Part shown: positions 10,701 through 64,000 of the stretch, one piece after another
Numbering within the stretch: position 1 is the first letter of the stretch
How the letters are laid out: the number at the start of each line of letters is the position of its first letter
Virus record (IMG/VR): IMGVR_UViG_3300014050_000012
Location: 1 to 64,000 of that record
Source of the DNA: a virus
Strand: one strand, 5' to 3'
DNA length: 64,000 nucleotides
Program-made: the position numbers and the translations under genes
The notes under the pieces: model-generated
What the model saw: the letters and a program-made list of their open reading frames with translations, nothing else
Told to the model about the DNA's origin: nothing
Database searches by the model: none

Positions 10701-10835
10701 ACTATCGAATATGATGTTGTAGGAGAAAACGCTAAAAATGCTACAAAATTAAATGGTCAAATGTACAAAGGTCCAGAATGGTTTACGTCCAACGCTAATG
10801 ATAATGATATATATTTGGGTATTTATAATAATTGA
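7752..10835 (+). CDS. terL: terminase large subunit, intein-interrupted
   Basis: Walker A ASRGFGKS, Walker B IIIADE, C-terminal nuclease YGIDPA...KDRYSA; start likely MSYNF at 7752 (ORF track 7719). Confidence 0.88.
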   Translation: MSYNFDDAWLGLGDLSKLTISRNLMINRSREDIENPDKHLLKIMRDPNYLGSTCKLLMNIELHPIQIAILQEFWNRAFPMFVASRGFGKSFLLALYATLKCIFIPGTKIVIVGAAFRQSKVIFEYMETIWRNSPILRSIFNGNDDGPRRDVDRCTMRYGDSWAIAIPMGDGCLTSDTMITFSNCFSTLGSLFDLDYDEELDTVNNCEVWDNIKFEKSLHKRYNGLKDTIKIKTKRGFVLEGTHNHEIKVFDGNNVIWKRLDSININDKILIDVSERWHEGTTELTTDESYALGLMIGDGCWTNKYRLRYTSNDPELVIALEKGTGYKFYQCSDGIHYNHDSIKNVKKWMNKWQIDHTYTKDKHLPEPILHSSQEIMSACLRGIFDTDGHVQGNKAKGGIGITISLTNTSEKLMKQIHYILLHYGIVSTLKSRKRKKQWNTIYELLINGYNVKKFAEKIGFGLKRKQHSLIEYISKKQKWLSQEKYYNSFLLDYITDISYDRNYTYDIEVENSHQYNANGICVHNSKIRGLRAHIIIADEFASISPDIYETVVSGFAAVSASPIQNVKEQAKKTAMQEMGIWNDELEALDTKMSNQAIIAGTADYAFKHFAKYWNRYKTIINSKGDINKLKDVFPESVPENFNWKDYSIVRIPYELIPKGFMDDKQVARAKATIHTGIYNMEYAACFVEDSEGFFRRSLVESCVVSTEKNITDSQGRPILFDATVKGSSHKQYIYGIDPASENDNFSIVILELNNDHNRVVYCWTTNRSNFKDRQKTGLVEDHDFYGFCARKIRNLMKTFPCARIGLDAQGGGIAIEEALHDPDKLNDGEILIWPTIDYSKSKETDNQQGLHILELIQFARADWTSQANHGLRKDMEDKVLLFPRFDNLTLGLTLASEGQDILTTDLNPIYDNLSECVVEIEELKNELTTIVMTQTSQGPNARDRWDTPEVKLTSGKKGRLRKDRYSALLIANMLARQMTRSYKTIEYDVVGENAKNATKLNGQMYKGPEWFTSNANDNDIYLGIYNN
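8265..9323 (+). mobile_element. intein (353 aa) with LAGLIDADG homing endonuclease
   Basis: N-terminal CLTSDT, block B GTHNHE, LGLMIGDG and LRGIFDTDG motifs, C-terminal YDIEV...VHN followed by Ser. Confidence 0.92.
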
Positions 10836-19130: not shown

Positions 19131-19163
19131 TTTATAATACTGGTAGGTTTTTGAGGATATTTT

Positions 19164-38600: not shown

Positions 38601-41600
38601 TGGTACTATTACTGGTACAGTATCTTTTGATATATATAAAACTAGTGGCGTTTCCTCTTCTGATCCTTTGTTACCCCCAGTTAAACTAACAGGATCTTAT
38701 GATTGGAATCCAATATTTTCTGGTACCCATTCTGTTTATGAAACTACATTATCATTTAATTTTAAAGCAACTTCTCTACAGCTATCTAATAAAAATTGGT
38801 CTGATTTAGATAATCAAAAGATTAGTTTGAGTATTGTTAAAAATAATAGTGCCAATTGGACCACTTATGGATTATCAAATAATATTACGGCATATATCCA
38901 TCCACACCTAGGCTTATTAGAATTTGATCTTAATGCTACTTTACCATTATCTGGACCCAATATTTATTTGTATACATCGGAGCCTGTTTATCCAGATTTT
39001 TATGGACAGCCCGTATATTTTTATCCAGGTTACTACATAAATGATACCACAGCATCTATAAATATAGAACCATACTCTTATATAAATTATATATATGATA
39101 ACTTTAAATATATAGATTCTAATACTTTGGGCTTTGAACAGAAACAACTATGTTACACAACCGGTACGGATATGATTCTTATCTCTTATCCTTCGATTCT
39201 AAAACATAGAACCAATCTGATAGCAGACGAAAATGAGCCTTTATTTCTACAAATTGGCGACAGTATTAAAATAAATAATACAAACGATACTATTACTAAT
39301 ATTTATATAGATAATAGTGGTCAAAAACATTATTCTGTATCTAATTCTTATAGCGCTAATACAGGATATGTTTATTTAACAAGTTCTATTTCTGGAGTAG
39401 GTTTTTCTAGTCAAAGATCTTTTAATAGCATAACAGGATCTTATACTTTTTCTAGATCATCTAATAGTGATTACTCTAGTACTCTAGAAGGCCAGACTTT
39501 TGCACCATTAATAAGTTTGCCTATTCCTGGATGTGTTATTAATGAACCACCATTTTATAGTCCAAACTGTTTATATTCTGTACCAACAGGATATAATTTT
39601 ACTTTTACATTTAATAGTGGATTATATCCAAATGGTCAAGATTATTTATCTAGTAATGTATGGTCTTCTTTTAGTTCAAATGCTCTAATAGTATCTTCTT
39701 CGATAATTCTTTCTTCTGGGCAAAATTATGTAGATTTACCACCACTTTTAGTTCCAAATGGATTTTTAAACAGTACCGGAGTTAATGTTGCTAAATACTC
39801 ATCATCTATTTTTGATTTTAGACTAAATAATTTAAGAATGTCAGACTCCACATATAAGATTAGATATAGTGGGTATGATCCAAATAATAATACAGGAATA
39901 AATAGTACATTTAATGGCTTACCGGCAATATTAATTAGTGGAGACTATAATAGATTTTATTTTGATACTGCTAGTACCGGGAATGAAATTTTTGCATATA
40001 AATTTTTAACTATTTTAGATAGCAATAATCAACACTATATTTCCAATACCTTTAGATCTCAAATTAATAATACTAATCCAACTATAGACAATTATGGAAA
40101 TAAATTAATAAGATGTTCTGATTGGGGATTATTATCAGACTCAAGATGGACGGGTGAAGTAGAGTGTAATAACTTTAATCTTGACTTTAGTGTTTCGTTG
40201 CCTCTTGATCTTAATAATAACTTTATAGAAAATTTTACACAAAATACCAGTACAACAGGAACATTTATTATAGCCTCTGGAACTGGACTAATTTTACCAG
40301 CAGATACTGGCACTTGGACAGCTTATGGTTTATCTGGTATAAATAATATATATGGAGATATTGTTTTATATCTAAAATGTAGAGAAAATTATAATTATAC
40401 AAATTTTAGTGGCGTTTTATCAACAGGTCAATTAGCCCAGCAATCAATATATAATCGTGGATTTACAGTAACTGAAATTTATCCAGAAATAGACTGTAAT
40501 ATTTATTCTGCTAATGGTACAAATACTGGAATATTTTCTATCTCTCTAAGTAATAAGCAAAATTATCATACACTAACAGTAAATTATCCTGACACATATC
40601 TAGATTATTTTAGACTACTACAATCATCGAATACTATAGATATACATAATAATCTAAACTTATCTTTTGCGTTATTAAATGGATCAAATACCACTATAGT
40701 TTCTGGTATATTTTTACCAAATACACAATGCAATAAACATATCATAAACAAACCTTTTAGTAAAATTTATAATGTTAACTCGAATACTTTTAATATTGCT
40801 GTTGTTAGCGGCTATATACCATCTGGATTACCAAGTTCAGGACCAATTATATTAACTATTCCAAAAATTTATGATTTGGTTCCATCAGATCAGATGCCTA
40901 GCTATCACACAGAATCTAGGGGAGTATTTGACTTTTCTTCCAGCAATGCAATCTTATCTAATGGTATTTATACCATAGAAAAACTAGATGATTATAATAT
41001 ATATTTATATGATTTCCCCAGATCTTTCGTCACAGGAGCTGATAGCGGAGAAAGTACTATTAGATATAATAATATAGGATTTAATATTACAGATGATAAG
41101 TTTAGTTTGTGGGGTAAAAATTTTGCTGGCGACACTATATTACATCCGTGGAGAGATGTGCCAACATTTGTTTCGGATTCTCCTGGCATTTGCGAATCTG
41201 GGAAATTATGTATTAGATTTTCTGGTATTCCAAATTATTTTCAAGAAAAAGATAATTTTTGGGTAGATATTATTCCAGATATTTATCCTCAATCTACAGG
41301 ACTAGTATATGCTACGGGATATTATGTAACTGGATTAAGCGGAATTAATGATAGTACTGTTTATATAAGATGTACTGGAGCATCTTCTTTAGGCGTTGTA
41401 CTGGGCATGAATATTTATTCAACAAATAATTGGACACCAAATAACTCTTACATATCCAGCTTAGTTAGTGGACAAGTTATAAAACTTAATACAAATATTA
41501 CCAGCGCATCGCCCGGAATATATACTAATATACACTCTAATTCATTCGCATATCCGTATCTATTTGCTTTTAATAAAGAAACCTCCTCACAAAATGCTGA

Positions 41601-44600
41601 GACAGATATTCTAAGAGAAGCTTGGAGAACTTTCATTTCTGGAGCATATTCTATACATAGAGATGAGGTTGCGCCAACAGTTGTTAGTATTTTAACTAAA
41701 ATTCCACCATTTTACTATAATGCTAATCATCCATATTATTCTGCATGGAATAGTTCTCAGGCCACTAGAGGAGTAAATGTTTGGAAAAATACTGGGTCTA
41801 CTGGTATATCGATGATGATTACGGGTGTTGAAAATATTCAAACCGATAAAAATCCTAACTATGGCTATAGATTTGTAAATACATCGCCATCCATATCATT
41901 CCAACCATCTATCACAGGATACGGCACATCTGGCAACATAGCAAATACTGGAAATAATAGTAAATTTAGATTTGCTCTAGATGAACTTAATAAATATTTA
42001 TGTGTTACTAGTATAAGTGGCATACATAGACCAACACTATCTTCTGGGCTTTTGGGTGCAAATGTTAATTTCCTTTCTGCATCAGATTGGACTATGAATA
42101 GTTCAAAAACAGAAAATACTAATTTATTAGTAAAAGATATAGATAATTTTACACTATTAGGCATAGATACTATTTCATTAAATAATACCCATAACGTAAT
42201 TTACAATTCTGGAAATAATATTTTTATAGCATCAGGATTACCACAAAATAGTGGATTAAAATTTAGATTTGGTTTGTGTGGCGGAGCATCAATACCATCA
42301 TTACCACCGGAAATTCAAGTTTTTGGTATTAATTCAAACTTTAACTATACAACAAAACATGTTTATGGTCTACCAACCGGAGATCAAGGATTATCTTCAT
42401 ATAGCAATCTCATTACTCCTTATAGTAATGTTTGGTATATTGATTTATATGTTAATGAGCTTAATAATATTCCTTCTTTTTCTTATAGTTTTAAAGATAT
42501 ACTTTACAATAAAGTAACCGGTATTATTTATAACAATAACCAAGCTGCGAATCATTATTATATTAATAATTTTACCACAACAACATATTCTAATGGAACT
42601 TTACCGTGGGTAGCTTCGTTTGATTTAGAAAATGTCAGTAGTGGTACTAACATAGGCATTAGTGGTGGTAGTGGAAACAATGTATTAATTCTAAGTAGTG
42701 GATTGGTATATAATCCTTATATTAGTAAGTGGCAAGGCTATATTTTTGGAAGTGGTACAGGTATAAATACCACATACAGCAATTTACCGGTTGGTATTAC
42801 TGGCGCTATAAATCTAGTACATACTGGTAATTTATTAGTAACAGGAGTGAATGCTGCGTATTCTCCAAGAATTAGTAATCTTTTAGATACAATTAAATTT
42901 AGAAATACAGGATTAGATCCCATAGTGCTCTACTTTAATTACCAAAAAGCTATTGGAGAAATAGATAGTCCATCTATTCAATTAAGTAATTATCCATCTG
43001 GCGCCACTATTAGCACAAATAAAATATCAGATATTAATTTAAATGCTTTTGCTCAAGCAACGAACAAGGAATTATGGAAAATAACTATAGGTAATATTGG
43101 AGCCACAGGATATACTCTTAATGGAGTGGCTTCGTTGTCTCCATATATAGATAATTTTAGTAGTAAAATTATTTCTTATGATTTATTTGGTATAAGTAAT
43201 GTATTATCTCCTGATCCTATTAATTTAACTAATACTAATTGGTTAATACAGTTAAGCGTTGATGGTGGAGGAGGACCAAATTATCCACCAAATATACAAC
43301 TGTTCAACACCCCTTCTGTGTATCAAACCGGAACATTAGCTTATGACTATACTAATAGTCAATGGGATATATCTTTAATAGGTAAGATTGATGATTTACA
43401 AAGATATAATATCGCTACAGGATTATACAATATTCAAATATATGGCCGAGATACTACAGGATATGCAACCAGCAGTACTAGCTTCACTTATTTATGCAAT
43501 CCAGAAATTCTAAATTTGAGAAAATGGTATGCTGTTAAAGATAAATCATATTTAATAAATTATGAAGTAAATAATTGTTGTAGAAATGAATACAATGTAA
43601 ATTCTAATACTTTTATAACTGATCCAAATTTACCAACATCAGAAACTCTACTATATAAAAAATATAATCCACTAATTAATACTTATGAATTGAGATATTT
43701 AGGAGATGCACCAGTAGATAAATGGGGAGCTAGATTAGAAATTTCTAATATTGATACAGAATATGCTTATGATGCTGTTAATGCTAATACTTTTACCATA
43801 GATGTAAAGGGATTAGACTCTGATGTGATTAGTGTTGTTGGACTATTAAAACTTAAAGAACTAGAAACGATTAATTCTGATTATCCGCCAATAGATATTA
43901 TTAATGTTAATCCAGAAGAGGATAAAACAAAAGCATTAACACAAGGAGATAACTGGTCTTTAAGCTTTAATGTTGTTGGTGGTTTATCTAATATTAATTT
44001 TCCTCCTACAATATTATTAAGCGGCTTACCATCTGTATGTAGTGGATATTTTCCTGATATTGAACCTAATGGTCCGCCATGTTTATCATCATTCTCTTTT
44101 AATAATAGTACATTACGTTGGACATTTAATTTTGCTGGACAAAGCAATTGTACAACTGGATTATATAATATTAGCATTAAAGCTTTTGACTCCACAGGAG
44201 AAGACACAGCATATACCAATCTATTCTTTGAACCATTACCGATACCTGGACCATCAGTTGTTTCTAAACTAACATCAAATTCTTTATTTCCTAACTGTTT
44301 GCCATTTTCTGGAGATATTCATGTTATTTCTCCAAGAAGAGGTTCTCCATGCCCATATATAACTGGTATTAAAGGATGGGAATTAATAGGTTCATTACCA
44401 AACGGTCTAGCTTTAGTATCAAACGAACTAGCTGGACTAAGTGCTCCTCATTACGTTGGTACTGGTATAGTTTCGATTACAGGAACAGCAACACAATTTG
44501 CTCCAGATAATGTTTATCCTGCGTTTATAATTAGAGCAACAGGATTTAATGATAAAACAGCTCAAACTGTTATTACTCTTAATAGTGCTGGAATAGTTCC

Positions 44601-46794
44601 TATCGATGAATATCCTCTTGGCTTTACTTTATATTTTCCACATTCTGGATATATGCTACCAACCTATAAACCGAATCCCAATGACACTCCACGAATAAGA
44701 TCAGCGAATCAAAGTGTTTATAAACCATATCCTGGTACTGGAGCGATGATTTGTCGTAGTTCATTATCTGATAATAATTGTCCAATATATTATACTGGAA
44801 TATATACTTTGCCAACATTTTCTATTACAGGATACGAAATAGCATCAATAAATAATCAAACAAACTTTTATGTGACAGGATCATATGGTTATATACCAGG
44901 ATATCTAAGTGTATGGAAAAATAATACGCTGTTAACTAACAATACAGATTTTACTGCTACTGGAAGTCCATTAATAACTTTGTCTGTTTCTGTTAATCAA
45001 AATGATGAAATTAGATGGAGTGGATTAGCATCTACCGGAACTGGATTAATTATAGATTTTGGCACAGAATCCATTTCTAGTTCGAATGTATACAGTGTAT
45101 TTGATTTTAATTTAACTAATAATAAGAATAATATTTATCAATTAATTAATATTAGTAATGAAGAATTTTTTGATGAAAAAACGCAACAATTCTACTATAA
45201 GTATGGTGGAGAATTATCTAATGTTTGCGATTCTAATCTACTCTTTTCTGGATTATCTCCAATATCTGGACATATACAACTTATGCCATTTGGCGTAGAG
45301 TCTATGAATATGCCAAACAGTTTTAATCTTAAAGGCGTTCCTGCATCAACTATGAACTGTAAAACATGCTTATTGGGTAATGGTGAGTTCGACACGTCTG
45401 GACCTAATCCTATACTTATTGGTAAAATGAGACCATCTATGATGTTAAATATTACAGGAAATATATATCCATTACAAGAATACGATTCAACAAATACTTG
45501 TATATCCAATAATTATTATATGGGTGGCGGCGTACAAAATCTGACCCTAATAAGCGGCGTATCTATAAGCTTACTACCAGGATTTTCTAGTGGAGAAATA
45601 GAGGAAATTTGCTATAAAAATTGTTATGAAAGTGGTGTTTCGTATCTTAGTGGCATAGTGGTACCAACTCCAGTAATAGAAATTACTGACCCGATACCTT
45701 ATGTTCGTAATTCACAAAATGTAGCATATGCCCTAAGATGTTCTTTTGGCGACACTAGTGTAAAAAGAGATAATATACAAAACTATAGAGGGGTAGATAT
45801 CAAATATTATATTAAACATTTAAATAGTGGATTATACTGGAATAATTCAGAAAATAAATTTGTATCTACAAAAACATTTTTTACACAATCTACAACAACG
45901 AATCTATCATTACCACAATCCATACCTTACTCAGCGCCAATTTTAACTAGTGGAGCGACATATGAACTATTTATGGAAAGAGCATCAGATGAATTTCCAA
46001 CTGTAAATATTAATTCTTATCCGTATATGAGTAATGCTATTTATTGGATACATCAGGCAAATGACGGAAATTCCTATCCTGCAACATCATCAACATATCC
46101 TGGATTTATGCCTATTCGATATAATAGTGGTATATTTATTGAGACCGGAGTTCCATTTAGAATACCTGCTCAAATTATAGGTGGTAGTGGATCGTATCAA
46201 CCAACAATAACCGGTTATTTAAGTCTTATTGATAGTAATACGGAAGTCTTGGATATTAATGGATTATCTCATAATCTAGCTGTTAGTACTAGTGGATCTA
46301 TTGTTAATGATGGATTATGGAATATTCAAATTACTGGTAATATTACTGGATTATTAAATTCTTATTTATCAAATTATGACTTACATATAGATATTACAGA
46401 AAATATTTTAGCTCCATTTGGTAAAACTACTAATAATATTATTCCAGTAACCATGCTTAGTCCTTTGTCATTTGCTATAACTAGCGATGGAGGATCCACC
46501 GTTTCTGCGACAATCGGATCAGTATGGAGCATATCTTTTACTGTTACAGGTGGAAATAGGCCACCAAGATATCATACTAATACTACTCAATGGGCAATTG
46601 ATAATGAGCCTATAGTAGAAATTGATGGCGAAATTTGTAATCATATATTTACTAAGTCTTATAATATGTCTAATAATACTTGGTCATATACTGTAACTTC
46701 TGCAAATATAGTTTTGGGCAATGAAATCCATACGATAAAATATATTGATAAAATGGGATATAGTATTTCTCAAGTTATTAACATACAAGTGTAA
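35668..46794 (+). CDS. giant (3708 aa) fibre/adhesin-like virion protein
   Basis: collagen-like GDKGDKGDKG, two DLLDGQH motifs, KV.VNSKGR fibre repeats, repeated Ig-like W.L.F.V.GG....PP.I units. Confidence 0.7.
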   Translation: MTIVNILEDSNNPNKYLIISSQDGTSESIVTTNVFVTSTSNNRLDLIEITKIPGDKGDKGDKGDIGPPGQDGLVFTVLPVSSGGTSNTSFITDKVIYYDGTQLVSSDLDINSIQTDIISNINAGNGLSKVQNGDEVTLNTNLGNGLTIVGDNQIGVDTNVVITKSTFDLSNTSFYQGILPIAYGGTNNTFFGLNSLIYYDGSKLATYPIPTGGIVHSGQQINIIAGSGLVGGGDITLPNGSVVIKLQNSDDITVFDDRIELSEIITTGTFTKVNVNSKGRVIGGSNITLNDVVTALGGMPWTSSTDGSGSGMDADLLDGQHGSFYRDAANISGTISTGVLPNIVSPATASKVQFNAKGLIIGTDFLTDTEITDALGYVPFDESGGTIFSNVEILGNLIADSATFDNNTITIGSPTNTNDIRGIRFRYNDVPAKHAVLAYYPAEGLFRISAESPGTSGIILTQEKADSKYVAVTGEQQISGIKTFLDNLNVYSRIIIRNPYPELSPLDIGSNSTLVQFLNADLLDGQHISYYRNAVNLTGILNTGVIIPHIQNRATVTYSNINNPDDGFVEYFPVFHRPSSGHPMVLRSSNVYHTGYNIHMKDSSLSVGFNILDDNISNSLVVGTNNSGSALATNSLAVGSQNIISGENSIALNYRSSAGTSNSIALGRYGETWLDDQISIGGFKNFNVGQDNIPRKDSHGQLSYIPLKYHGEAGGYVNILSFTLPENKTLEYEASLLFTKQINTGVASFNISPGIVKNYGYRDPSRGYAAYKKATMVTHHNVTEVYNNSQERIYNLAVELDNSYDANFKANDLEVTAKPYQYNTLDIQSYGTPIVITPKSDHSSKLKVTRGSSDLEDTYRDNYVIKIEPYNRSPYNTGAPITLGRNINHITECLYYRPSGSTTGIIKFSNHGFSPSCPFEISQYIGTGNIKILARKDSVFDFGLPTIQKTGTTINSFYKENNSNNEIIYRTYIDKNIFGTITGTVSFDIYKTSGVSSSDPLLPPVKLTGSYDWNPIFSGTHSVYETTLSFNFKATSLQLSNKNWSDLDNQKISLSIVKNNSANWTTYGLSNNITAYIHPHLGLLEFDLNATLPLSGPNIYLYTSEPVYPDFYGQPVYFYPGYYINDTTASINIEPYSYINYIYDNFKYIDSNTLGFEQKQLCYTTGTDMILISYPSILKHRTNLIADENEPLFLQIGDSIKINNTNDTITNIYIDNSGQKHYSVSNSYSANTGYVYLTSSISGVGFSSQRSFNSITGSYTFSRSSNSDYSSTLEGQTFAPLISLPIPGCVINEPPFYSPNCLYSVPTGYNFTFTFNSGLYPNGQDYLSSNVWSSFSSNALIVSSSIILSSGQNYVDLPPLLVPNGFLNSTGVNVAKYSSSIFDFRLNNLRMSDSTYKIRYSGYDPNNNTGINSTFNGLPAILISGDYNRFYFDTASTGNEIFAYKFLTILDSNNQHYISNTFRSQINNTNPTIDNYGNKLIRCSDWGLLSDSRWTGEVECNNFNLDFSVSLPLDLNNNFIENFTQNTSTTGTFIIASGTGLILPADTGTWTAYGLSGINNIYGDIVLYLKCRENYNYTNFSGVLSTGQLAQQSIYNRGFTVTEIYPEIDCNIYSANGTNTGIFSISLSNKQNYHTLTVNYPDTYLDYFRLLQSSNTIDIHNNLNLSFALLNGSNTTIVSGIFLPNTQCNKHIINKPFSKIYNVNSNTFNIAVVSGYIPSGLPSSGPIILTIPKIYDLVPSDQMPSYHTESRGVFDFSSSNAILSNGIYTIEKLDDYNIYLYDFPRSFVTGADSGESTIRYNNIGFNITDDKFSLWGKNFAGDTILHPWRDVPTFVSDSPGICESGKLCIRFSGIPNYFQEKDNFWVDIIPDIYPQSTGLVYATGYYVTGLSGINDSTVYIRCTGASSLGVVLGMNIYSTNNWTPNNSYISSLVSGQVIKLNTNITSASPGIYTNIHSNSFAYPYLFAFNKETSSQNAETDILREAWRTFISGAYSIHRDEVAPTVVSILTKIPPFYYNANHPYYSAWNSSQATRGVNVWKNTGSTGISMMITGVENIQTDKNPNYGYRFVNTSPSISFQPSITGYGTSGNIANTGNNSKFRFALDELNKYLCVTSISGIHRPTLSSGLLGANVNFLSASDWTMNSSKTENTNLLVKDIDNFTLLGIDTISLNNTHNVIYNSGNNIFIASGLPQNSGLKFRFGLCGGASIPSLPPEIQVFGINSNFNYTTKHVYGLPTGDQGLSSYSNLITPYSNVWYIDLYVNELNNIPSFSYSFKDILYNKVTGIIYNNNQAANHYYINNFTTTTYSNGTLPWVASFDLENVSSGTNIGISGGSGNNVLILSSGLVYNPYISKWQGYIFGSGTGINTTYSNLPVGITGAINLVHTGNLLVTGVNAAYSPRISNLLDTIKFRNTGLDPIVLYFNYQKAIGEIDSPSIQLSNYPSGATISTNKISDINLNAFAQATNKELWKITIGNIGATGYTLNGVASLSPYIDNFSSKIISYDLFGISNVLSPDPINLTNTNWLIQLSVDGGGGPNYPPNIQLFNTPSVYQTGTLAYDYTNSQWDISLIGKIDDLQRYNIATGLYNIQIYGRDTTGYATSSTSFTYLCNPEILNLRKWYAVKDKSYLINYEVNNCCRNEYNVNSNTFITDPNLPTSETLLYKKYNPLINTYELRYLGDAPVDKWGARLEISNIDTEYAYDAVNANTFTIDVKGLDSDVISVVGLLKLKELETINSDYPPIDIINVNPEEDKTKALTQGDNWSLSFNVVGGLSNINFPPTILLSGLPSVCSGYFPDIEPNGPPCLSSFSFNNSTLRWTFNFAGQSNCTTGLYNISIKAFDSTGEDTAYTNLFFEPLPIPGPSVVSKLTSNSLFPNCLPFSGDIHVISPRRGSPCPYITGIKGWELIGSLPNGLALVSNELAGLSAPHYVGTGIVSITGTATQFAPDNVYPAFIIRATGFNDKTAQTVITLNSAGIVPIDEYPLGFTLYFPHSGYMLPTYKPNPNDTPRIRSANQSVYKPYPGTGAMICRSSLSDNNCPIYYTGIYTLPTFSITGYEIASINNQTNFYVTGSYGYIPGYLSVWKNNTLLTNNTDFTATGSPLITLSVSVNQNDEIRWSGLASTGTGLIIDFGTESISSSNVYSVFDFNLTNNKNNIYQLINISNEEFFDEKTQQFYYKYGGELSNVCDSNLLFSGLSPISGHIQLMPFGVESMNMPNSFNLKGVPASTMNCKTCLLGNGEFDTSGPNPILIGKMRPSMMLNITGNIYPLQEYDSTNTCISNNYYMGGGVQNLTLISGVSISLLPGFSSGEIEEICYKNCYESGVSYLSGIVVPTPVIEITDPIPYVRNSQNVAYALRCSFGDTSVKRDNIQNYRGVDIKYYIKHLNSGLYWNNSENKFVSTKTFFTQSTTTNLSLPQSIPYSAPILTSGATYELFMERASDEFPTVNINSYPYMSNAIYWIHQANDGNSYPATSSTYPGFMPIRYNSGIFIETGVPFRIPAQIIGGSGSYQPTITGYLSLIDSNTEVLDINGLSHNLAVSTSGSIVNDGLWNIQITGNITGLLNSYLSNYDLHIDITENILAPFGKTTNNIIPVTMLSPLSFAITSDGGSTVSATIGSVWSISFTVTGGNRPPRYHTNTTQWAIDNEPIVEIDGEICNHIFTKSYNMSNNTWSYTVTSANIVLGNEIHTIKYIDKMGYSISQVINIQV

Positions 46795-54503: not shown

Positions 54504-57500
54504 ATGGCAGCATTTAATCTAACAGCACAATTAAATCTTGTTGGACCAACAAATATTAGGCAAATTGTTGGAGATATTAGAAAACAATTAGGAACCATTA
54601 AGGGAACTATTAATGTTGGTATTGATCCACAATCAGCTAAGGCTATAGCACAAGCACAATCTCAAGCTGCTCAATTAAGTTCCGGACTAAATAACGTAGC
54701 AAAATCTGGAAATACTGCCGCAGCTGGCATGAGAGATTTAAATGACGCTGCTGCAAAAAATCAGTTAGGATCTACAGCTAAAAATGCTGCATCGGCCGCT
54801 GATGCTGCTACAAATCTTGGTAAACAAAGTTCCAGAGCTGCTAAAGATGTTAAGGTGCTAGGTAATGAGTTAGCTGAGTTCGGTAGGCAGTCTGGTTTAG
54901 CTATTAGACGTTTTGCTGCTTTTAGTTTGGTATCAGGAGTTATGTATAAACTTAATAGTGCTATTAATCAAGCATTATCTCAATATATAGATTTTGATAG
55001 AGAATTAGTAAGAGTTTCACAAGTTACGGGAAAAAGTGTTCAAGAATTAGGTAGTTTGGTAGATGAAATATCTTCGTTGGCAGGCAGTACTGGCGTAGCA
55101 TCTAAAGAATTAATACAAGTATCATCAACCTTAGCACAAGCTGGTTTGAGTGCCAGAGAAGCAGAACAGGCCCTAAAAGCTTTGGCGCTTAGTGCTAATG
55201 CGCCGTCTTTTGATAATCTTAATGATACTGTAGAAGGTAGTATCGCTTTAATGAGACAGTTTGGTATTAGGGCAAATGAACTAGAATCAGCACTAGGTAG
55301 CATTAATGCTGTGGCCGCAGCATTTGCTGTTGAAGCTAGTGACTTAATTACCGCAATTAGTAGAACTGGTGGTGTGTTTGCTAGTGCTAGTAGAGGAGTT
55401 AGTGAAGGAACGCAAGCACTAAATGAATTTATTGCTGTATTCACAAGTGTTCGTGCTACAACTCGTGAAAGTGCCGAAACTATTGCTACTGGTTTAAGAA
55501 CTATTTTTACTCGTATTCAGAGAGAGTCCACAATTACTGCTCTAAGAGAGCTGGGTGTGGAACTTAGAGATGTGGAAGGAAAGTTCGTTGGTCCGTATGA
55601 GGCCGTTAGAAGACTAAGCGAAGGATTGGGACAACTAGATCCTAGATCTCAAGTATTTGCTAATATCATAGAAGAACTTGGTGGTTTTCGCCAAATTGGT
55701 AAGGTTATTCCGCTTATTCAACAATTCGCTACAGCAGAAGCGGCTTTGCAAGTAGCGCTCAAGGGTGGAGATTCACTAGCAGAAGCTAATAGACAAGCCC
55801 AACAATCTTTAGCTGTACAACTAGCTAAAACTAGAGAAGAGTTTGTGGCATTAGTAAGAGATTTTGCTAATAATTCTGTATTTAGAGGATTTTTAACAAC
55901 TACAATTAGTATAACAAAAAGCATATTAAGTTTAGCAAGAGCGGGAAAATCATTATTTCCCTTACTAACTATACTTGGTGGATTTAAAGCATTCTCTGCT
56001 GCTACTCAGTTTGCTGGTGGATTTTTAAAGGGTGTGCGACCAACAGGAGGAAGACCTGGTGGTTCTGCTAGTAGGGGTATAGGACAAAATCTTGGTGAGG
56101 TAATTAGTGGTTCCAAAAGCGAAAGACAATCAGCATCGTTAGACAAGATAGCTAAAGTTTTAGAAAGTAATGCTGGAAATTTTAATACCAGTGTATCATC
56201 TTTAATTCAACCTATCACACAACTATCTACAGCTATACAACAAAATATAGTTAGTCTTACAGATAATACTGGAGCTTTGACAGCAAATACAGCTGCTATT
56301 AATAATTTAACTGCTGCATTGGGTATGAAGGGAACAACATTAGCTGGTGGTGGCAAGGTTTTAGGCTTCGCCAAGGGAGGAACTGTTCCTGGCAGCGGAA
56401 AAGGAGACAAAGTTCCAGCATTATTAGAGCCTGGCGAAGTTGTAATGAGCAATAGAGCTGTTAATAAGTATGGAAGAGGTAATTTGGTTAATATGAATAA
56501 AAGATATTTTAAAGGAGGTATAGCCCAAGAAAAGCTTCAAACACTAGTTGAAAAAAGCAATAGTATTAAAAAATATATTAATGACACTATCAATCCAGAT
56601 GATGAAGCATTAACAAAGATAGTTCCATTTCGTGTTGATCTTGATGATAATGATTTCAGAGAAATGAAACAAATCATGATAGATACTGAAAGGCAAAGAC
56701 TTAGATATTTAGAAACATATCGTGATGATCCCAAAGCAAATAAACAAGTGCAACAGAGAGCCAGAAGCAGCAAAGACCCTAGAACAGTTGTTGGATTTCT
56801 TGGTCTGAAAAAACCAGAATCTCATTGGGGTCCAGGTAATGCTTTTCAACAGCATTTAATTAAAAGACTAAATATTTCACCAAGCGATATGCCCCCTAAT
56901 CTTGGCACACCACAAGAACAATTTAAAGATATTATAGACGAACATTATGCTGTTTTAGACTACCAAGACGGTGATGCTAAATTTTGGAAAGATCTAAGTT
57001 ATTTTGATACACAACCCGGAAAAATAGACATACTAAATAAACAATTTAAAAATGTAGTCAATAATAATCAACTAAAACCAAAACCAACCCCAAATTATGA
57101 ACTTTTTACTTTACCGGATACGCGAGTTTATTATCCTGAGATTGGCACAAAAGAACAATTTATGCGAGATTATGCGGCGTTTACCACAGCAGATTATGCA
57201 AAAACACATCTTCCAGCAGGAGCTTATTCTATTGGTGGAAAAATTCAAAAATTTGCTGGTGGAGGAGAAGCACTACAATCTAAATTATCAACCATAAGAA
57301 CTCTTTTAGGCGAATTTTATGGAAACGATGAACAACTGATATCAAAATCAATTTCTAATTCTATGATAATCGATGAGGCTCGTGCTGATAAAATTATTGC
57401 TAATTTAGAATCATCTAGATCACAGTTACCATTATTTAGAAAATTATTATCAGAAAAATCGTCTTCTGTTGGTGTTTTAAATGGATTTCCAATAGCCAGG

Positions 57501-60500
57501 TATGGTGCTATTGGTGGTATTGAGACTATGAGATTTGATGAACTAAAAGATGAAGAAACCATTAGAGAGTTTATAAAAAGAGGAAAATTAGCAACACAAG
57601 CTTCGCGTGGTCCAGTTGGTAAACGCATAGTTTACAGTGATCAAAAAGCAGCAAGACGAAGGTTTGCGGTTGGCGGAACAGTAGAGGGCATAGCTGCTAA
57701 AGAAAAAAAATCTATTGAAACTGTAATTTTAGAACAATTATCCAGTTTTGGAGATGCTAGCGGAGTTAAAAAAATACTAGGATTAGGAGCTGGAGAAAGA
57801 GAGATTAGCTCTATATTGAATGCTAGTAATATTAGAGCCGGTAAAAACATAGAAAAAGCTATTAAATTTATAAATAGGGCGCTAGCTAAGACAGGAAAAC
57901 AAGATGCTGCTAGAGAAGCAAAAGAAGCAGCCATGAGAAAAGTTGCAATTGCCGGATTATTTCCATTAGATTATAATAAAGATTTTTCAGACTGGAAGTT
58001 GGAAGATGGTAGAGAAATTTATGGTTATGTTAGAGGATTTCAATCTAGCTTTTTACCACAAATAGAAGCTATGCAAGAGGCTAATAGAGCTACTCGTCAA
58101 AAATTTGCTGAAGATATTCAAGATACGGCAGCATTAGGCGGATTAGGTAATAGAAATATTCAGGGGCCAATTCAACCATTAGCAATAGATTTTGATGAAA
58201 CATTGGCTCTTGGAACAAAAATGTTAAAAGTTAACAAAGAGGGTAAAGAAGAAGAAGATTTACCAGCCTATGCGGATAGAAAAAAAGTTATGGAAAGTCT
58301 AGCCCAAGCTAGACCAACCTCACTAGCTAAAAGATTGGCTAGTATAGAACAAAAAAATCCCGGATATGTTAGGATGTATAGTCGTATCTTAACGGCCCGT
58401 CCTCAAAGCACAGCAGATATTATAGCATCTACTCTTAATAGATTCGGATTACCGTATTTAGAACAAGATGTTACTGGAGTTAGTCAAGGATTAGGAACAA
58501 ATATAGCAAAAGCTAAAGCTGCTAATGTTGCAGCAGCGGAAAAATTGATCGATGATAGTGAAGAAAATATTAGAGCAACAATGGCTGCTGGTAAAAGCAC
58601 TTTTCGTTATGGCGAAGTTCCAGAACTCAAAGGACCAGCAGAAGAAAAATTTGGACAATCTAATATTGAAGGAGGCTTGTTAGAAGCGGCACTATCGCAA
58701 TTATTGGGTTATAATATAAATGTTGATGCTTTAGAAAGAAATAGGGCGATTGATTTTCCACAAGGACTAGGTAGAGGTGCTCAACTTTTTGGATTACCTC
58801 CGAATATTGAAACAGAAGTAAAAAGAACTTTGGACGGAGATAGTTTTTCAAAAGCCAGAGAAGAATTTAGTAGATACTTTACAGAAAATCCACAAGCCTA
58901 TGCTAAAGGAGGAGCAGCAACATTTGGCTCTGGATCATTTAAATTTCCCAAAAGAATAAGTAATGCTTATGTTCGGGAAATGGAAAAATTATTAGAACAA
59001 GAACAAATGGAGAAGGTTTTTTCAACGTATCCTGGTAATGAAAGAATGATTGTAGACGAAGAGGCTGTGAAAAAAGGTTACGAATCTCCTTTTAGTAGAG
59101 AACTATTCATAAATTCGTTTAAGGATAAAATAAATAGAAATACAGTTTTTGAAAGAATGGGGCAATTTGCGCGAGTTATAGGATTGCCACCCGCCGATCT
59201 TTTATCTGCAATACCAACTCAATTAGACTTTGGTGTTAATTATCCTGCTACAGCATTATTTAGCAAGGATCCTTCTGGCCCAGGAACCAGGGGACTACAA
59301 GGGGTGGATCTGACACCATATGGTTATACTGAACAAGATAAACAAGATTTATTCGGATATACTAAACTAATAGAAGAAAAAAAGAAACAAATATTAAAAA
59401 CAATTAAAACTCCTGTTACAACATATGAAGATGGTAGTTTTGGTTATGATGTGGCTCTAACAGAAAAATTAAGAGCAGAATTAGACGATTTACAAAAACA
59501 ACAAAGATCTCTTATTGATAAAAACAATGCGGCTATTAAAGCTGCAAAAGAATCCAGATTACAATCCGCAAATCAGAGTGGTCGAGGTAGCGTTGGTATA
59601 GCTACTAATCCGTTCAATACAAGTCAACGTCAAGACTATAGTATTTTATATCATGAATTAACTCATCAACTTTTTAATAGTCTTAGAACTAAAAATGCTC
59701 AATCATTTGAAGCATACAAGGCAAAAGTTTCTAGTTTATTCGATGGAAACAATGATGATGTGGCAGATGCTTTTGATACTCTGGTAGGAAATAGTGGATA
59801 TAATAGTGCTGATGTTGCTTATGGAAGAAGTTATAAACTTAATGGACTAAGTAGTTTAATGATAGGCTCCGCTAAAAAAGAGTCGTTTGAAAAATATGTT
59901 AATAGTGATCCAGAATATGTTCCAGAATTAAGAAAAACTTGGGCCGAAACAAATTCCACCACAAAGGCCAAAGCCTTTAAGCCACTTAATCCTAGAGTTA
60001 ATGATGTTTTATTAAGAGGTAAAATAAGTCAAGATGTTATAGATAAATATGAAGATAATGGTAAAGAAGAATTTTTAACCACACTAGTACAAAAATTACC
60101 ATTATTAGATGAAAATTTAAGTGGAATTTTGGATAGTACTCTGGATGAGTTGTTGGGAGGTGCTGAAATAAGTAGACAAAAATTTGCTATAGGTGGTAAA
60201 GTTAATTTATATCATGGTTCGACAACAGGAATAGATGATAATCAATTAAAGAAATTTAAAGAACAAGGAGCTTTATCTAATATAGCTCAAGGATATGGTC
60301 AGGGTGCTGGATTTTATGTCTGGACTGATAAATTAACCGCTATTAAACATGCGGATATGAGGATCAAAGCAGCAAAAGAAGGTATAAATAGTATTATGGG
60401 AGGAGATACTGGTGGAAAAGGAATGATCTTAGAATTCCAAGAATCTTTGGATCCATCCTTATGGGATCTTGATTATGAAATATCTAAAGGGCCAGTTATC

Positions 60501-63500
60501 AAATGGATAGCCGATAATTATGAAACTTTAAAAGATAAAGTTGCCGCATCTGAAGGAATAGCCGGCGTTACCGAAGTCGAAAAATATGATCCTAAAGTTG
60601 CCAAAGAAACTGGATTATTATATGGCGGCGCTAATATTATGACACAAACAGCTACTGGATCCAAAAAATATATAGATGCAGATTCAGCTGGAGATATACG
60701 AGAGGGCGAAATTCTTGGACAAATTATGAATAGGCTTCAGTCTAATGATCCTAGTCTTGTTCACTCATTTGAAAATAGTTTTTTCGGTCAACAATCTTTT
60801 CCAAAAGGATCGGCTCTAAAATATGTTGGATCGTCGCCATTAATACCAGTAAATATTGAAACATTCGCTTCTGGTGGTAAGGCTGGACTAGCAGATGTTA
60901 ATAAAGTTGGAGAACAACTATCTAGTGATTTTAAATTAATGAAAGGAAAAAATGCATGGAATCAATTAGAAAATAATTGTTTAAGTATTGCTAATAAGGT
61001 ATCCGATATGTTTGGCTATGTTGTAGAACCAGATAAAATTAGACAACAACTTGATACTTTCCAAAAATTAAGACTTGGTAAAACTAGCGCATTTGGATTA
61101 AAGCCGACAGAAGAAGTATTAAAGAAAATGCCATCATTGAATAGAATGCTTAATAATCCAACTTTAGCTGCTAGTACTGGTAATATAGTAGTTAGAGAAG
61201 GCGAAGAAATGATGAAACATGTATCATTTGAACATATGAATAAGGAATATAATTTTGGAGCAGCTGGTCCTGACTGGCCCATAGTGTTAAGAATACCTTT
61301 AAAAAAGAAAGATGCTGAGCAAAAACGCTATGGAGGTATGCTTAATAAATTCACTTCGGGAGGAACCATACCAGCACTAGTAAGTAACGGTGAGGCTTAT
61401 GTGCCTCCGAAGCTTGCTAAACGCATTGGATATGGAACACTAAGTCGTATGAATATGGCCGATAAAAATGGCATGGGGAGATTTAGTGATGGTGGAATTA
61501 GTGTATTTAAGGGTCCAGGTAGTGGAACTAGTGATAGTATACCAACAAGTTTACCAGTAGGAAGTTTTATAATAAGAGAAAAGGCTACTAAAGCTTTGGG
61601 ATTAAATAAGGGTGGGAGCGTAGGCATTCAAAAATTTCAAGACGGAGGCGCCCCAACAAATAGCGGAGACCTATATTTTACCACCTTGTCATCTGCTCAA
61701 ATACAAGATATAGTTGGTAAAGGATCATCTAGAACAGGAATAGATGTTGAATCTTTAGATTTATTAACAAGATATGCTACAGATGCAGGCATGAGCATAG
61801 AAGATTTTTCTAGCGGACTAATAAGAGCTAGAGATACTGCAATTGAATCTGCTTTAGCACAAGGACAAAGTTTTAAAGAAGCAGCATTAGCTGGACAACA
61901 AGCTGCTATTGCGATGGCAGATATTCCAAATATACAAGTTACAGGAGAAAATCCGTTAGACGTACTAAGATCCTTAACAGCATCGTCCACTAGAGTACAA
62001 GCAAATGTCGAACAACGTAGAGAAATATTAAGTGATCCTGAAATTATTGCTGCTATTAATGAAACTAATGATTTAATGAGTAAACTAACTCCTGCTGAAC
62101 AATTTTCTGTTCAAACAGGAACCGGACCAATGACCCCACAAATGGAAGAAGCAGCAGCATCTAGAAGAAGACAAAAAAATATTGTTGGATATAAAATAGA
62201 AGAAAGACAAACTCAAGCCAATCAACCAGGATTTGTACCACCAACTATACAACAACCAACTAATTTAATGGATATTGATGGTATTAATAATCAATTGAAG
62301 GAAGCTCAAAATAATGCTGCATTATATGCGTCATCTCTTAGGGATCAAGCTAATGCTATTCGCGCACAACAAGAAATTACCATAGATCCTGGCACCTTTG
62401 CTGGATTAGAAGCTAAAGCACAAGCTCTAGAAGAAAAAGCAGCAGCAACCGAAAAAGCTTATCAAGATTTGGCAGATAGTACACAAGAGAGTGTGTCTTG
62501 GTTTGATACAGAATATCAGGCGGCTATAGATAGTATGAGAATACGAGCAGAGTCTGTAGCTAAAGCAACACAAGATGTTGAAAAAGCTATGGTAACAAGA
62601 GCTAAAGAAATAGCCTCTGCAAATCCAGAATTAACAGCTGAAGAAATTGGACAACAGATTAGCACAGAAAAAACAGGAATAGTAGCAGAAGCTAGGGCTC
62701 AACAAACAGAAGCCGAAACAAAATTTGGTAGAGCACAAAGTAGGGTTGATACACTAGCGGGCAAAGCTGGTGCTGGAGCAGATATTTTAGCGGCTGATAA
62801 TAAAGCTAAGGCAGAAGCACAAGCTAAAGCAGATGCTGAAAAAGCCTTAGAGGCTCGTAAACAACAAGCGCGTGACCTTGGGGCGAAACGTGCGGCTATT
62901 GCTGTACCAGAAAAAAGAGAGTACGAAACAGAACAAGAATTTAACGATAGACGACAAAAGGCAACAGAAAGATTTACCAGACAATCAGCACGAGAATTGG
63001 GTCTTAGTAAAACTAGATTTGTTAGCTCAAGACAAAAAAAAGCTATAGAAGAAGAAGAAGCTAAAAAAACTAAAGTTGAGAGAGAAAAAACAGATGTTGC
63101 TATTCAAAGCACAGATACTAAAGCTACACTATTATTAGTACAAGCTATTAATGCAAATACTGTAGCACAAACTGGTTCGGCAGATTCTGTGAAATCATTA
63201 ACCGAACAAACAAATGGTCTCATTGCTACAAATGAACAACTAACTAATGCAAAAAATGCTGATATTGAACAGGCTAATGCTTCTCCTGAGAGAAGCGACC
63301 TATCTAAAGACACCCTAAGAGAAATTCCATTCTTAGACAAACTTGAAACATTAGGATCAGCAGTTGGTGACTTTGCTAATAATTTTGCAGCATCTACTAC
63401 TGATATTGATGGCAATATTGGTAAATTTGGTAGTGTTCTTCAGGGCGGTGCTTCTAGATTAGAATCTGGTATCAAAAAACTAGCTGATGGTATCAGAAAT

Positions 63501-64000
63501 GCTAATACGGCATTTGCAGATACTAAAATAGGAAAGTTTGCGGATTCATTTAGTCAATATGGCACAGCAATAGGTACTGGTGTAACAAGCGTACTACAAT
63601 ATATGGCCGACCAATCTAATGGTTATGAAACACTAACAGGATCAATACTACAAGCAGGATCAACAATAGCTAGTACAGCAACCATATTCGGTACTTTTGG
63701 TGCTCAATTCGGTCCGCTTGGTGGATTATTGGGAACACTTGCTGGCGTAGGGGCTGGAGCAGTACAAAGCATAAGAGATTATGTAGAAGCTCAGAATAAG
63801 GCCGCGGCAGAATTGTTAGAGACACAACGAACAGATGCTTTAGAAAAAGCATCATCAGATATTGCTGTATTTTTAGATAATGTCAATCCGTCTGCGAAAG
63901 ATCTTGAAAGCGCTCTTAGTAATTTGGCTCAGGTAGTAAATATTGAAAAAGAACAAATGTCTACTAATACAGAAGCTAGCAGATATAAATCAACTTATGG
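54504..64000 (+). CDS. tape-measure protein (TP901-type core) with embedded multi-enzyme region; 3'-truncated, at least 3165 codons
   Basis: manual translation from ATG 54504 (MAAFNLTAQLNL...); core FDRELVRVSQVTG...LAQAGLSA...ETIATGLRTIFTRI; no stop found in the parts translated, and its absence from the ORF track is consistent with it running off the window. Confidence 0.88.
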   Translation, partial: MAAFNLTAQLNLVGPTNIRQIVGDIRKQLGTIKGTINVGIDPQSAKAIAQAQSQAAQLSSGLNNVAKSGNTAAAGMRDLNDAAAKNQLGSTAKNAASAADAATNLGKQSSRAAKDVKVLGNELAEFGRQSGLAIRRFAAFSLVSGVMYKLNSAINQALSQYIDFDRELVRVSQVTGKSVQELGSLVDEISSLAGSTGVASKELIQVSSTLAQAGLSAREAEQALKALALSANAPSFDNLNDTVEGSIALMRQFGIRANELESALGSINAVAAAFAVEASDLITAISRTGGVFASASRGVSEGTQALNEFIAVFTSVRATTRESAETIATGLRTIFTRIQRESTITALRELGVELRDVEGKFVGPYEAVRRLSEGLGQLDPRSQVFANIIEELGGFRQIGKVIPLIQQFATAEAALQVALKGGDSLAEANRQAQQSLAVQLAKTREEFVALVRDFANNSVFRGFLTTTISITKSILSLARAGKSLFPLLTILGGFKAFSAATQFAGGFLKGVRPTGGRPGGSASRGIGQNLGEVISGSKSERQSASLDKIAKVLESNAGNFNTSVSSLIQPITQLSTAIQQNIVSLTDNTGALTANTAAINNLTAALGMKGTTLAGGGKVLGFAKGGTVPGSGKGDKVPALLEPGEVVMSNRAVNKYGRGNLVNMNKRYFKGGIAQEKLQTLVEKSNSIKKYINDTINPDDEALTKIVPFRVDLDDNDFREMKQIMIDTERQRLRYLETYRDDPKANKQVQQRARSSKDPRTVVGFLGLKKPESHWGPGNAFQQHLIKRLNISPSDMPPNLGTPQEQFKDIIDEHYAVLDYQDGDAKFWKDLSYFDTQPGKIDILNKQFKNVVNNNQLKPKPTPNYELFTLPDTRVYYPEIGTKEQFMRDYAAFTTADYAKTHLPAGAYSIGGKIQKFAGGGEALQSKLSTIRTLLGEFYGNDEQLISKSISNSMIIDEARADKIIANLESSRSQLPLFRKLLSEKSSSVGVLNGFPIARYGAIGGIETMRFDELKDEETIREFIKRGKLATQASRGPVGKRIVYSDQKAARRRFAVGGTVEGIAAKEKKSIETVILEQLSSFGDASGVKKILGLGAGEREISSILNASNIRAGKNIEKAIKFINRALAKTGKQDAAREAKEAAMRKVAIAGLFPLDYNKDFSDWKLEDGREIYGYVRGFQSSFLPQIEAMQEANRATRQKFAEDIQDTAALGGLGNRNIQGPIQPLAIDFDETLALGTKMLKVNKEGKEEEDLPAYADRKKVMESLAQARPTSLAKRLASIEQKNPGYVRMYSRILTARPQSTADIIASTLNRFGLPYLEQDVTGVSQGLGTNIAKAKAANVAAAEKLIDDSEENIRATMAAGKSTFRYGEVPELKGPAEEKFGQSNIEGGLLEAALSQLLGYNINVDALERNRAIDFPQGLGRGAQLFGLPPNIETEVKRTLDGDSFSKAREEFSRYFTENPQAYAKGGAATFGSGSFKFPKRISNAYVREMEKLLEQEQMEKVFSTYPGNERMIVDEEAVKKGYESPFSRELFINSFKDKINRNTVFERMGQFARVIGLPPADLLSAIPTQLDFGVNYPATALFSKDPSGPGTRGLQGVDLTPYGYTEQDKQDLFGYTKLIEEKKKQILKTIKTPVTTYEDGSFGYDVALTEKLRAELDDLQKQQRSLIDKNNAAIKAAKESRLQSANQSGRGSVGIATNPFNTSQRQDYSILYHELTHQLFNSLRTKNAQSFEAYKAKVSSLFDGNNDDVADAFDTLVGNSGYNSADVAYGRSYKLNGLSSLMIGSAKKESFEKYVNSDPEYVPELRKTWAETNSTTKAKAFKPLNPRVNDVLLRGKISQDVIDKYEDNGKEEFLTTLVQKLPLLDENLSGILDSTLDELLGGAEISRQKFAIGGKVNLYHGSTTGIDDNQLKKFKEQGALSNIAQGYGQGAGFYVWTDKLTAIKHADMRIKAAKEGINSIMGGDTGGKGMILEFQESLDPSLWDLDYEISKGPVIKWIADNYETLKDKVAASEGIAGVTEVEKYDPKVAKETGLLYGGANIMTQTATGSKKYIDADSAGDIREGEILGQIMNRLQSNDPSLVHSFENSFFGQQSFPKGSALKYVGSSPLIPVNIETFASGGKAGLADVNKVGEQLSSDFKLMKGKNAWNQLENNCLSIANKVSDMFGYVVEPDKIRQQLDTFQKLRLGKTSAFGLKPTEEVLKKMPSLNRMLNNPTLAASTGNIVVREGEEMMKHVSFEHMNKEYNFGAAGPDWPIVLRIPLKKKDAEQKRYGGMLNKFTSGGTIPALVSNGEAYVPPKLAKRIGYGTLSRMNMADKNGMGRFSDGGISVFKGPGSGTSDSIPTSLPVGSFIIREKATKALGLNKGGSVGIQKFQDGGAPTNSGDLYFTTLSSAQIQDIVGKGSSRTGIDVESLDLLTRYATDAGMSIEDFSSGLIRARDTAIESALAQGQSFKEAALAGQQAAIAMADIPNIQVTGENPLDVLRSLTASSTRVQANVEQRREILSDPEIIAAINETNDLMSKLTPAEQFSVQTGTGPMTPQMEEAAASRRRQKNIVGYKIEERQTQANQPGFVPPTIQQPTNLMDIDGINNQLKEAQNNAALYASSLRDQANAIRAQQEITIDPGTFAGLEAKAQALEEKAAATEKAYQDLADSTQESVSWFDTEYQAAIDSMRIRAESVAKATQDVEKAMVTRAKEIASANPELTAEEIGQQISTEKTGIVAEARAQQTEAETKFGRAQSRVDTLAGKAGAGADILAADNKAKAEAQAKADAEKALEARKQQARDLGAKRAAIAVPEKREYETEQEFNDRRQKATERFTRQSARELGLSKTRFVSSRQKKAIEEEEAKKTKVEREKTDVAIQSTDTKATLLLVQAINANTVAQTGSADSVKSLTEQTNGLIATNEQLTNAKNADIEQANASPERSDLSKDTLREIPFLDKLETLGSAVGDFANNFAASTTDIDGNIGKFGSVLQGGASRLESGIKKLADGIRNANTAFADTKIGKFADSFSQYGTAIGTGVTSVLQYMADQSNGYETLTGSILQAGSTIASTATIFGTFGAQFGPLGGLLGTLAGVGAGAVQSIRDYVEAQNKAAAELLETQRTDALEKASSDIAVFLDNVNPSAKDLESALSNLAQVVNIEKEQMSTNTEASRYKSTY

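Follow-up and report, generated by a model that had tools for sequence, protein, structure and literature searches.

Tape measure proteins (TMPs) with built-in enzymes are an established theme: the TMP of T5, pb2, carries a muralytic domain (PMC10038345), and for SPbeta yomI one record gives a tail length tape measure protein where others give a putative or lytic transglycosylase. Neither is a papain-fold Cys enzyme: that of T5 is a metallopeptidase, and the YomI annotation is that of a glycosidase. Within the papain fold, the PPPDE (C97) and NlpC/P60 peptidases have been placed in a single cluster that mixes canonical and permuted forms (PMC10318531), and a survey of polyvalent proteins proposed zincin peptidases as processing enzymes, its main text containing no mention of tape measures or of papain, NlpC, or PPPDE domains (PMC5512222). 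Here, we describe a Cys–His module inside a giant TMP encoded by the IMG/VR virus record IMGVR_UViG_3300014050_000012, of which positions 1 to 64,000 (hereafter, the window, 64,000 nucleotides in length) were analyzed. In contrast to the T5 pb2 and YomI enzymes, this module is one optional unit of a long, shuffled cassette array. An earlier note on this DNA had proposed a PPPDE/DeSI-like peptidase that cuts the TMP at its own GG motifs; what is new here is the Cys–His family and its uncoupling from those motifs, whereas the kind of enzyme is already known.

A Cys–His family in giant tape measure proteins and free phage genes

The virus record containing the window comprises 88,908 bp, and a single open reading frame (ORF) on its plus strand (54504..68624) encodes the 4,706-aa TMP. 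Its N-terminal region (aa 188–394) matched the Pfam PhageMin_Tail core with an E value of 6e-24, and PHROG tape measure families matched as well, which confirms the earlier placement of the module inside a TMP. Translation of 60879–61328 (+) yielded both motifs, WNQLENNCLSIA and KHVSFEHMNKEYNFG, with the Cys codon at 60978–60980 (aa 2159) and the His codon at 61218–61220 (aa 2239) of the same ORF; the two residues are thus located where they had been reported, and in the un-permuted order, Cys ahead of His.

An exhaustive HMMER search with aa 2110–2300 as the query, performed against 1.84 billion representative proteins, revealed 31 relatives of the module at E ≤ 1e-3, 17 of which were retained at E ≤ 1e-10. 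The module is a real, conserved, and discrete domain, and its detection is not a chance match. Conservation was measured on 33 sequences aligned to the family profile, leaving out fragments column by column, and was concentrated at a few positions: Gln (30/30), Asn (30/30), Cys (29/30), Arg (29/31), and His (31/31), followed by E2243 (28/31) and by the Glu (E2248) and Asn (N2250) of the KEYN motif, each present in 32 of 32 sequences. The conservation of Cys and His among homologs, on which the earlier note had made its claim depend, therefore holds, at an overall identity between the members and the window copy of just 26–39%. No match to the module was obtained in cultured phages by blastn or tblastn.

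Nine of the relatives are embedded in giant proteins of 2,089–5,762 aa. The TMP cores of P0003–P0006 and P0011 share 46–55% identity with that of the window protein and those of P0015, P0021, and P0025 share 23–26%, P0023 being left out of this comparison. The position of the module varies widely among the giants (aa 545, 627, 741, 1044, 1151, 1165, 1475, 1613, 2125, and 4643; overall range, aa 545–4800), and cassettes of this kind are gained, lost, and rearranged at [FY]xxGG joints from one relative to the next. The nearest relative, P0035, exhibits 77% identity over the core and carries a different cassette array without the module, and homology to it resumes at aa 2273, right after the module. 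Both the variable positions and this absence, with homology resuming directly downstream, indicate that the module is an optional, mobile cargo cassette of the giant TMP array. In the distant TMPs P0015, P0025, and P0021, the module directly follows the core and is the sole domain recognized by Pfam or by the family profile besides the core and the lambda-type end. The lineage to which these proteins belong is very large and uncultured: the N-terminal TMP core is common to 1,843 proteins of 1,740–5,539 aa (E ≤ 1e-10), and among cultured phages it retrieved only relatives at 23–25% identity, such as SPbeta yomI, matched at 23%.

Approximately 20 further relatives are standalone phage proteins of 117–180 aa, encoded by ordinary small genes in phage contigs of 81, 99, and 458 kb. 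Among the genes found next to them are sheath and gp15-like genes, a TnpB-like ORF, and genes for a GT2 glycosyltransferase and a coenzyme A ligase. Just upstream of the standalone copy in the 458-kb viral contig (L003, 6560–7963), we observed two small ORFs of 82 and 115 aa, each hydrophobic near its N-terminus, together with a pair of Cys-rich paralogs (134 and 138 aa) whose ORFs overlap, a group that could be a lysis-type cluster or could be unrelated to one. In the 81-kb contig (L004), the region ~700 bp upstream of the standalone copy contains, on the opposite strand, an ORF of 302 aa (4403–5311, minus strand) in which a Cas12f1/TnpB-like TNB domain was recognized (E 6e-12).

Fold, structural neighbors, and candidate substrates

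AlphaFold2 models of the window copy (predicted local distance difference test, pLDDT, 85.0; predicted template modeling score, pTM, 0.77) and of P0020, the shortest standalone member (pLDDT 91.6; pTM 0.85), exhibited the same topology, composed of a helix, a short hairpin, a Cys-initiated helix, a further helix, and a four-stranded sheet whose second strand starts with the His and whose third carries the invariant Glu and Asn. In the DSSP assignment of the window-copy model, Cys2159 is the first residue of helix 38–48 and His2239 lies on strand 117–123. The models thus display the papain-like α+β arrangement characteristic of NlpC/P60-type enzymes, with the Cys heading a helix and the His lying on a later β-strand, and the 33-sequence alignment supplies the conserved Cys, His, and third polar residue that accompany it.

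When the P0020 model was searched with Foldseek, the top rows were occupied by MepS (E 0.06), the 7v6s peptidase, Tae3, OspI, and Tae4; against PDB and BFVD, no match fell under E 0.06 and none was significant. Nearly all of the top 50 structural rows in both searches were nevertheless papain-fold Cys enzymes, among them LapG, MepS, NlpC/P60 autolysins, BtaeB, Tse1, Tae3, CHAP amidases, and protein glutaminase, as well as OspI, SseI, SpvD, AvrPphB, staphopain, C39 peptidases, pseudomurein isopeptidases, and vasohibin. The leads in the ESM Atlas all scored below 0.9 and corresponded to clusters bearing TseH or IcsB_M. Because the neighbor lists are strikingly uniform, we read the module as a divergent papain/NlpC-P60-type fold with the canonical Cys-then-His order, a reading supported in part, with no single strong structural match. 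The papain/NlpC-P60 fold expected in the earlier note is partly borne out by the predicted topology and by the neighbor lists, and not by any significant Foldseek match. On this reading, the family, which no library names, belongs with the assemblage formed by NlpC/P60, CHAP, the Tae amidases of type VI secretion systems (T6SS), and two permuted families, PPPDE and LRAT.

Sequence comparisons place the family at a distance from each of its neighbors. Neither the window copy nor the family members produced any Pfam match to PF00877 (NlpC/P60), and the NlpC/P60 endopeptidases (E. coli MepS/Spr, C. difficile Acd24020, and B. subtilis LytE and CwlO) show no significant sequence match to the module, which differs from them in its own motif set (Q-x3-N-C, R, H-x3-E-x4-E-x-N), in lacking a signal peptide or lipobox, and in its location inside a TMP. 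Searching the family profile against PDB sequences retrieved Tse1 alone, at a nonsignificant E value of 1.3–2, in an alignment that spans the NC and HV motifs of the family; the Tse1 residues aligned to these motifs are what we take to be its catalytic Cys30 and His91. With hhalign, the family segment NC..IA..FGY..P.S was aligned with DCSGF..FGLELPRS of E. coli MepS, covering only the Cys helix and the FG...P segment (Prob 1.2%). The T6SS amidase effectors Tse1/Tae1, Tae3, Tae4, BtaeB, and TseH differ from the module in their carrier, a secretion system versus a phage TMP, and no immunity-gene partner was seen for the module. As for the C39 double-glycine leader peptidases (PCAT1 and ComA), no sequence match was found, and nothing observed here ties the module to GG cutting.

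The Q...N-C, H, and E-x-N set conserved on a papain fold makes it probable that the module is an active thiol hydrolase. Cys2159, at the helix N-terminus, would act as the nucleophile and His2239, on the facing β-strand, as the base, with Glu2248 or Asn2250 of the next strand orienting the His and Gln2154 contributing the oxyanion hole. The module would leave the tail together with the TMP during infection, and its target in the host would be an amide bond or an isopeptide bond. Taken as a whole, the reading that we put forward, with somewhat less than even confidence, is that of a catalytically competent papain-fold thiol hydrolase that serves as exchangeable TMP cargo and is most likely directed at the cell wall. 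The cell wall is proposed because the closest structural neighbors and the sole co-linear sequence alignments are those of peptidoglycan amidases (MepS and Tse1/Tae); the muralytic domain of T5 pb2, the annotations of SPbeta yomI, and the place of the module directly behind the core in P0015, P0025, and P0021 provide precedents. Our guess for the substrate is the peptidoglycan stem peptide, at well below even odds. A cytoplasmic host protein or a metabolite amide is a possible target, about as likely as the cell wall.

Several observations weigh against a cell-wall target. The module is rare in its lineage, being carried by 11 of the 128 related giant TMPs; its standalone copies have no signal peptide or other export signal and no wall-binding domain; and their genomic neighborhoods are uninformative, with no conserved or informative partner and no clear lysis cassette seen. 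The neighboring cassettes of the array, moreover, were described in a first, sequence-only reading as ART-like, HAD-like, and zincin-like; enzymes of these kinds would be of cytoplasmic types. No ubiquitin-like protein (Ubl), E1, or E2 gene and no immunity gene was seen beside the standalone copies either. Against the hydrolase reading as a whole, neither the window copy nor the standalone members reached the threshold of any named family in Pfam, NCBIfam, or PHROG, and the standalone homolog P0026 exhibits a Gly in place of the catalytic Cys while retaining Gln, His, Glu, and Asn; this member may have lost its activity or may act in another way.

An alternative is an injected effector that acts on a cytoplasmic host protein as a protease, deamidase, or acyltransferase; OspI, SseI, SpvD, AvrPphB, LapG, TecA, and the arylamine N-acetyltransferases all share the fold. 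Polyvalent phage proteins that are injected and contain ART and peptidase domains are on record (PMC5512222; PMC7824862), and both the neighboring cassettes, as described in the first reading, and the standalone copies devoid of export signals agree with such a role. On the other hand, both aligners rank peptidoglycan amidases nearest, and the only sequence alignments that are co-linear likewise involve such enzymes (MepS and Tse1); no target can be named for the effector. We give this explanation nearly the same weight as a cell-wall target.

GG joints and their independence of the module

The module is bordered by FASGG upstream and by YGG...FTSGG downstream, a [FL]xxGG motif is also found immediately ahead of it in P0003–P0006, and it is usually followed by a joint. 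In the window protein, P0004, P0005, P0011, and P0116, a lambda-type joint block is located directly downstream. Across the 128 giants, [FY]xxGG occurs 1,303 times versus 234 in shuffled sequences, a 5.6-fold enrichment, and the joint follows the consensus ...GG-K-[VI]-Q-K-F-A-x-G-G-x-V. In lambda gpH, aa 661–782 (KFHFATGG...PAGIVHRGEFV...YATGG) align to TMP aa 525–672 (window 56076–56519, plus strand) with an E value of 1e-6; on the basis of this alignment, the FAxGG and YxxGG joints represent a recurring tape measure element of the lambda C-terminal type. The element that forms the joint block downstream of the module (aa 2273–2384) has another copy in this same gpH-aligned block, aa 525–672. 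As lambda gpH already has the joint, the latter predates the present cassette arrays.

The earlier note suggested that the module may cut the TMP at xxGG motifs. Spelled out, this would be a GG-specific protease that cleaves the [FY]xxGG joints in cis or in trans and thereby frees the cargo enzymes. The PPPDE-type motifs of the family, the joints flanking the module, the joint block directly downstream in the five proteins listed above, and the known cleavage of the T5 and lambda TMPs (PMC10038345) would all suit this proposal. A module that cuts joints should, however, co-occur with them, and this was not observed in either direction. The 117 of 128 giants that lack the module keep [FY]xxGG at 2.6 per 1,000 aa, versus 2.2 in the carriers, both at ~5.6 times the shuffled expectation; the closest relative, P0035, retains the joint block without the module; and the joint is shared by lambda gpH, in which a Cys–His module is absent. 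Conversely, the density of joints in P0015, which possesses the module, is that of the background (0.48 per 1,000 aa), and the ~20 standalone proteins occur without any polyprotein. In T5, pb2 is cleaved after R1127, between a hydrophobic stretch and the muralytic domain (PMC10038345), and the reference list of the same article includes a 1973 paper whose title reports a selective involvement of the host in T5 tail protein cleavage, which also counts against the proposal. Because module and joints do not travel together, the processing role is unsupported: joints and module are uncoupled both ways, and the module is not required for joint cutting, if the joints are cut at all. Self-processing at GG joints is therefore an improbable function for the module.

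The coordinates of the module, its motifs, and its flanking elements are collected in Table 1. Elsewhere in the window, an intein (Intein_splicing, E 1e-8) splits the large terminase gene (7719–10835, plus strand; 1,038 aa) and carries a homing-endonuclease domain of the LAGLIDADG kind (Pfam LAGLIDADG_3, E 6e-24). Two fibre-like genes (17394–21560 and 21566–24553, both on the plus strand) begin with an Mtd_N (major tropism determinant N-terminal) domain, and the gene that follows them has a C-terminal Peptidase_S74 intramolecular chaperone domain. A second giant ORF in the structural region (35668–46794, plus strand; 3,708 aa) produced no Pfam match.

Table 1. Position and basis of the features described in the tape measure gene (window coordinates).
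Feature	Position	Strand	Description	Basis
Giant TMP gene	54504..64000 in the window; ORF continues to 68624, beyond the window end	+	Giant tape measure protein	ORF list; genome extension
Upstream joint	60864..60878	+	FASGG, aa 2121–2125	Direct reading
Cys–His module	60879..61319	+	aa 2126–2272 (~145 residues); unnamed papain/NlpC-P60-fold family (predicted)	Relatives; alignments; AlphaFold2 model; fold neighbors; P0035 homology resuming at aa 2273
Q2154-x3-N2158-C2159	60963..60980	+	Candidate oxyanion Gln and nucleophile Cys	Conservation; DSSP of models
R2231	61194..61196	+	Near-invariant Arg on the strand preceding the His strand	Arg in 29/31
H2239-x3-E2243-x4-E2248-x-N2250	61218..61253	+	Candidate general base His; Glu/Asn of the next strand as candidate third residue	Conservation; DSSP
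Conserved joint block	61320..61655	+	aa 2273–2384 (YGG, FTSGG, FSDGG, LNKGG, FQDGG); backbone, not cargo	79% identity to P0035 aa 1801–1909; preceding cassette array different

Likeness to PPPDE/DeSI peptidases and significance of the family

PF05903 (PPPDE) was the sole Pfam family matched by more than one member, namely by three of the 20 members searched. The best of these matches aligned the His hairpin of P0032 (residues 91–116) to profile positions 24–49 (E 0.0034; 17.7 bits), while the Cys helix of P0018 (residues 31–77) aligned to positions 99–140 and residues 13–54 of P0024 to positions 85–122. The Cys and His halves thus map to the profile in swapped order, as a circular permutation predicts. 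The PPPDE signature motifs, H-x(n)-E-[YF]-x-[FY]-G and the N-C of the helix, are recognizably similar to those of the module, where they are present as HVSFEHMNKEYNFG and NNCLSIA and conserved family-wide. PPPDE/DeSI enzymes (PF05903; MEROPS C97) have, however, a permuted residue order, with His ahead of Cys, whereas the module family is un-permuted, with Cys2159 before His2239. Every member match remained below the PF05903 gathering cut-off of 29.2 bits, and the window copy had no match at E ≤ 1, nor did a six-frame search of the whole genome return one at E ≤ 10. No PPPDE structure was found among the structural neighbors, in searches whose aligners are sequential and would score a permuted relative poorly. 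Since all matches lie below the cut-off and the window copy has none, the family, judged by its sequences, resembles PPPDE and is not a member of it; of the PPPDE/DeSI-like assignment in the earlier note, the motif likeness and the swapped-order matches survive and the membership does not.

This likeness could be taken further, by regarding the PPPDE/DeSI isopeptidases of eukaryotes and double-stranded RNA viruses as having in the phage family their un-permuted sister, or a stand-in for their ancestor, and the module as a virion-carried, GG-directed isopeptidase that would either strip bacterial ubiquitin-like tags from phage tail proteins or trim the TMP at its GG joints, a view that we consider unlikely to be correct. 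A related proposal, in which the module would be an un-permuted PPPDE/DeSI relative stripping a bacterial Ubl (Bil-type) from phage or host proteins as a counter-defense carried in the virion, may draw on the sub-threshold PF05903 matches, which cover both catalytic motifs in swapped order in three members, on the clustering of PPPDE (C97) with NlpC/P60 in canonical and permuted forms (PMC10318531), and on the existence of a bacterial system conjugating a Ubl to the phage central tail fibre (bioRxiv 10.1101/2023.09.04.556158). The window copy, however, lacks any PF05903 signal even at E ≤ 10, and no Ubl, E1, or E2 genes were seen beside the standalone copies, which renders this role highly unlikely. 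Lastly, a non-catalytic structural or binding unit that keeps the fold only, as the Gly of P0026 at the Cys position and the low fold scores might suggest, is scarcely credible, given that 29–32 of ~30–32 sequences retain each of six positions that are polar or candidates for catalysis, at 26–40% identity, a pattern typical of active enzymes.

Together, these observations add an unnamed, compact (~125–145 aa) family of putative Cys–His hydrolases to the papain/NlpC-P60 assemblage, one that travels in two ways, encoded by a phage gene of its own or plugged as a cassette into giant TMPs. Because the GG joints of these TMPs do not depend on the module, a joint-cutting protease is to be sought elsewhere. 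If a PPPDE-like isopeptidase activity were true, the family would bear on the origin of DeSI and on phage countermeasures to bacterial ubiquitin-like defense, and if the cell wall is the target, the module would constitute a small new lysin scaffold.

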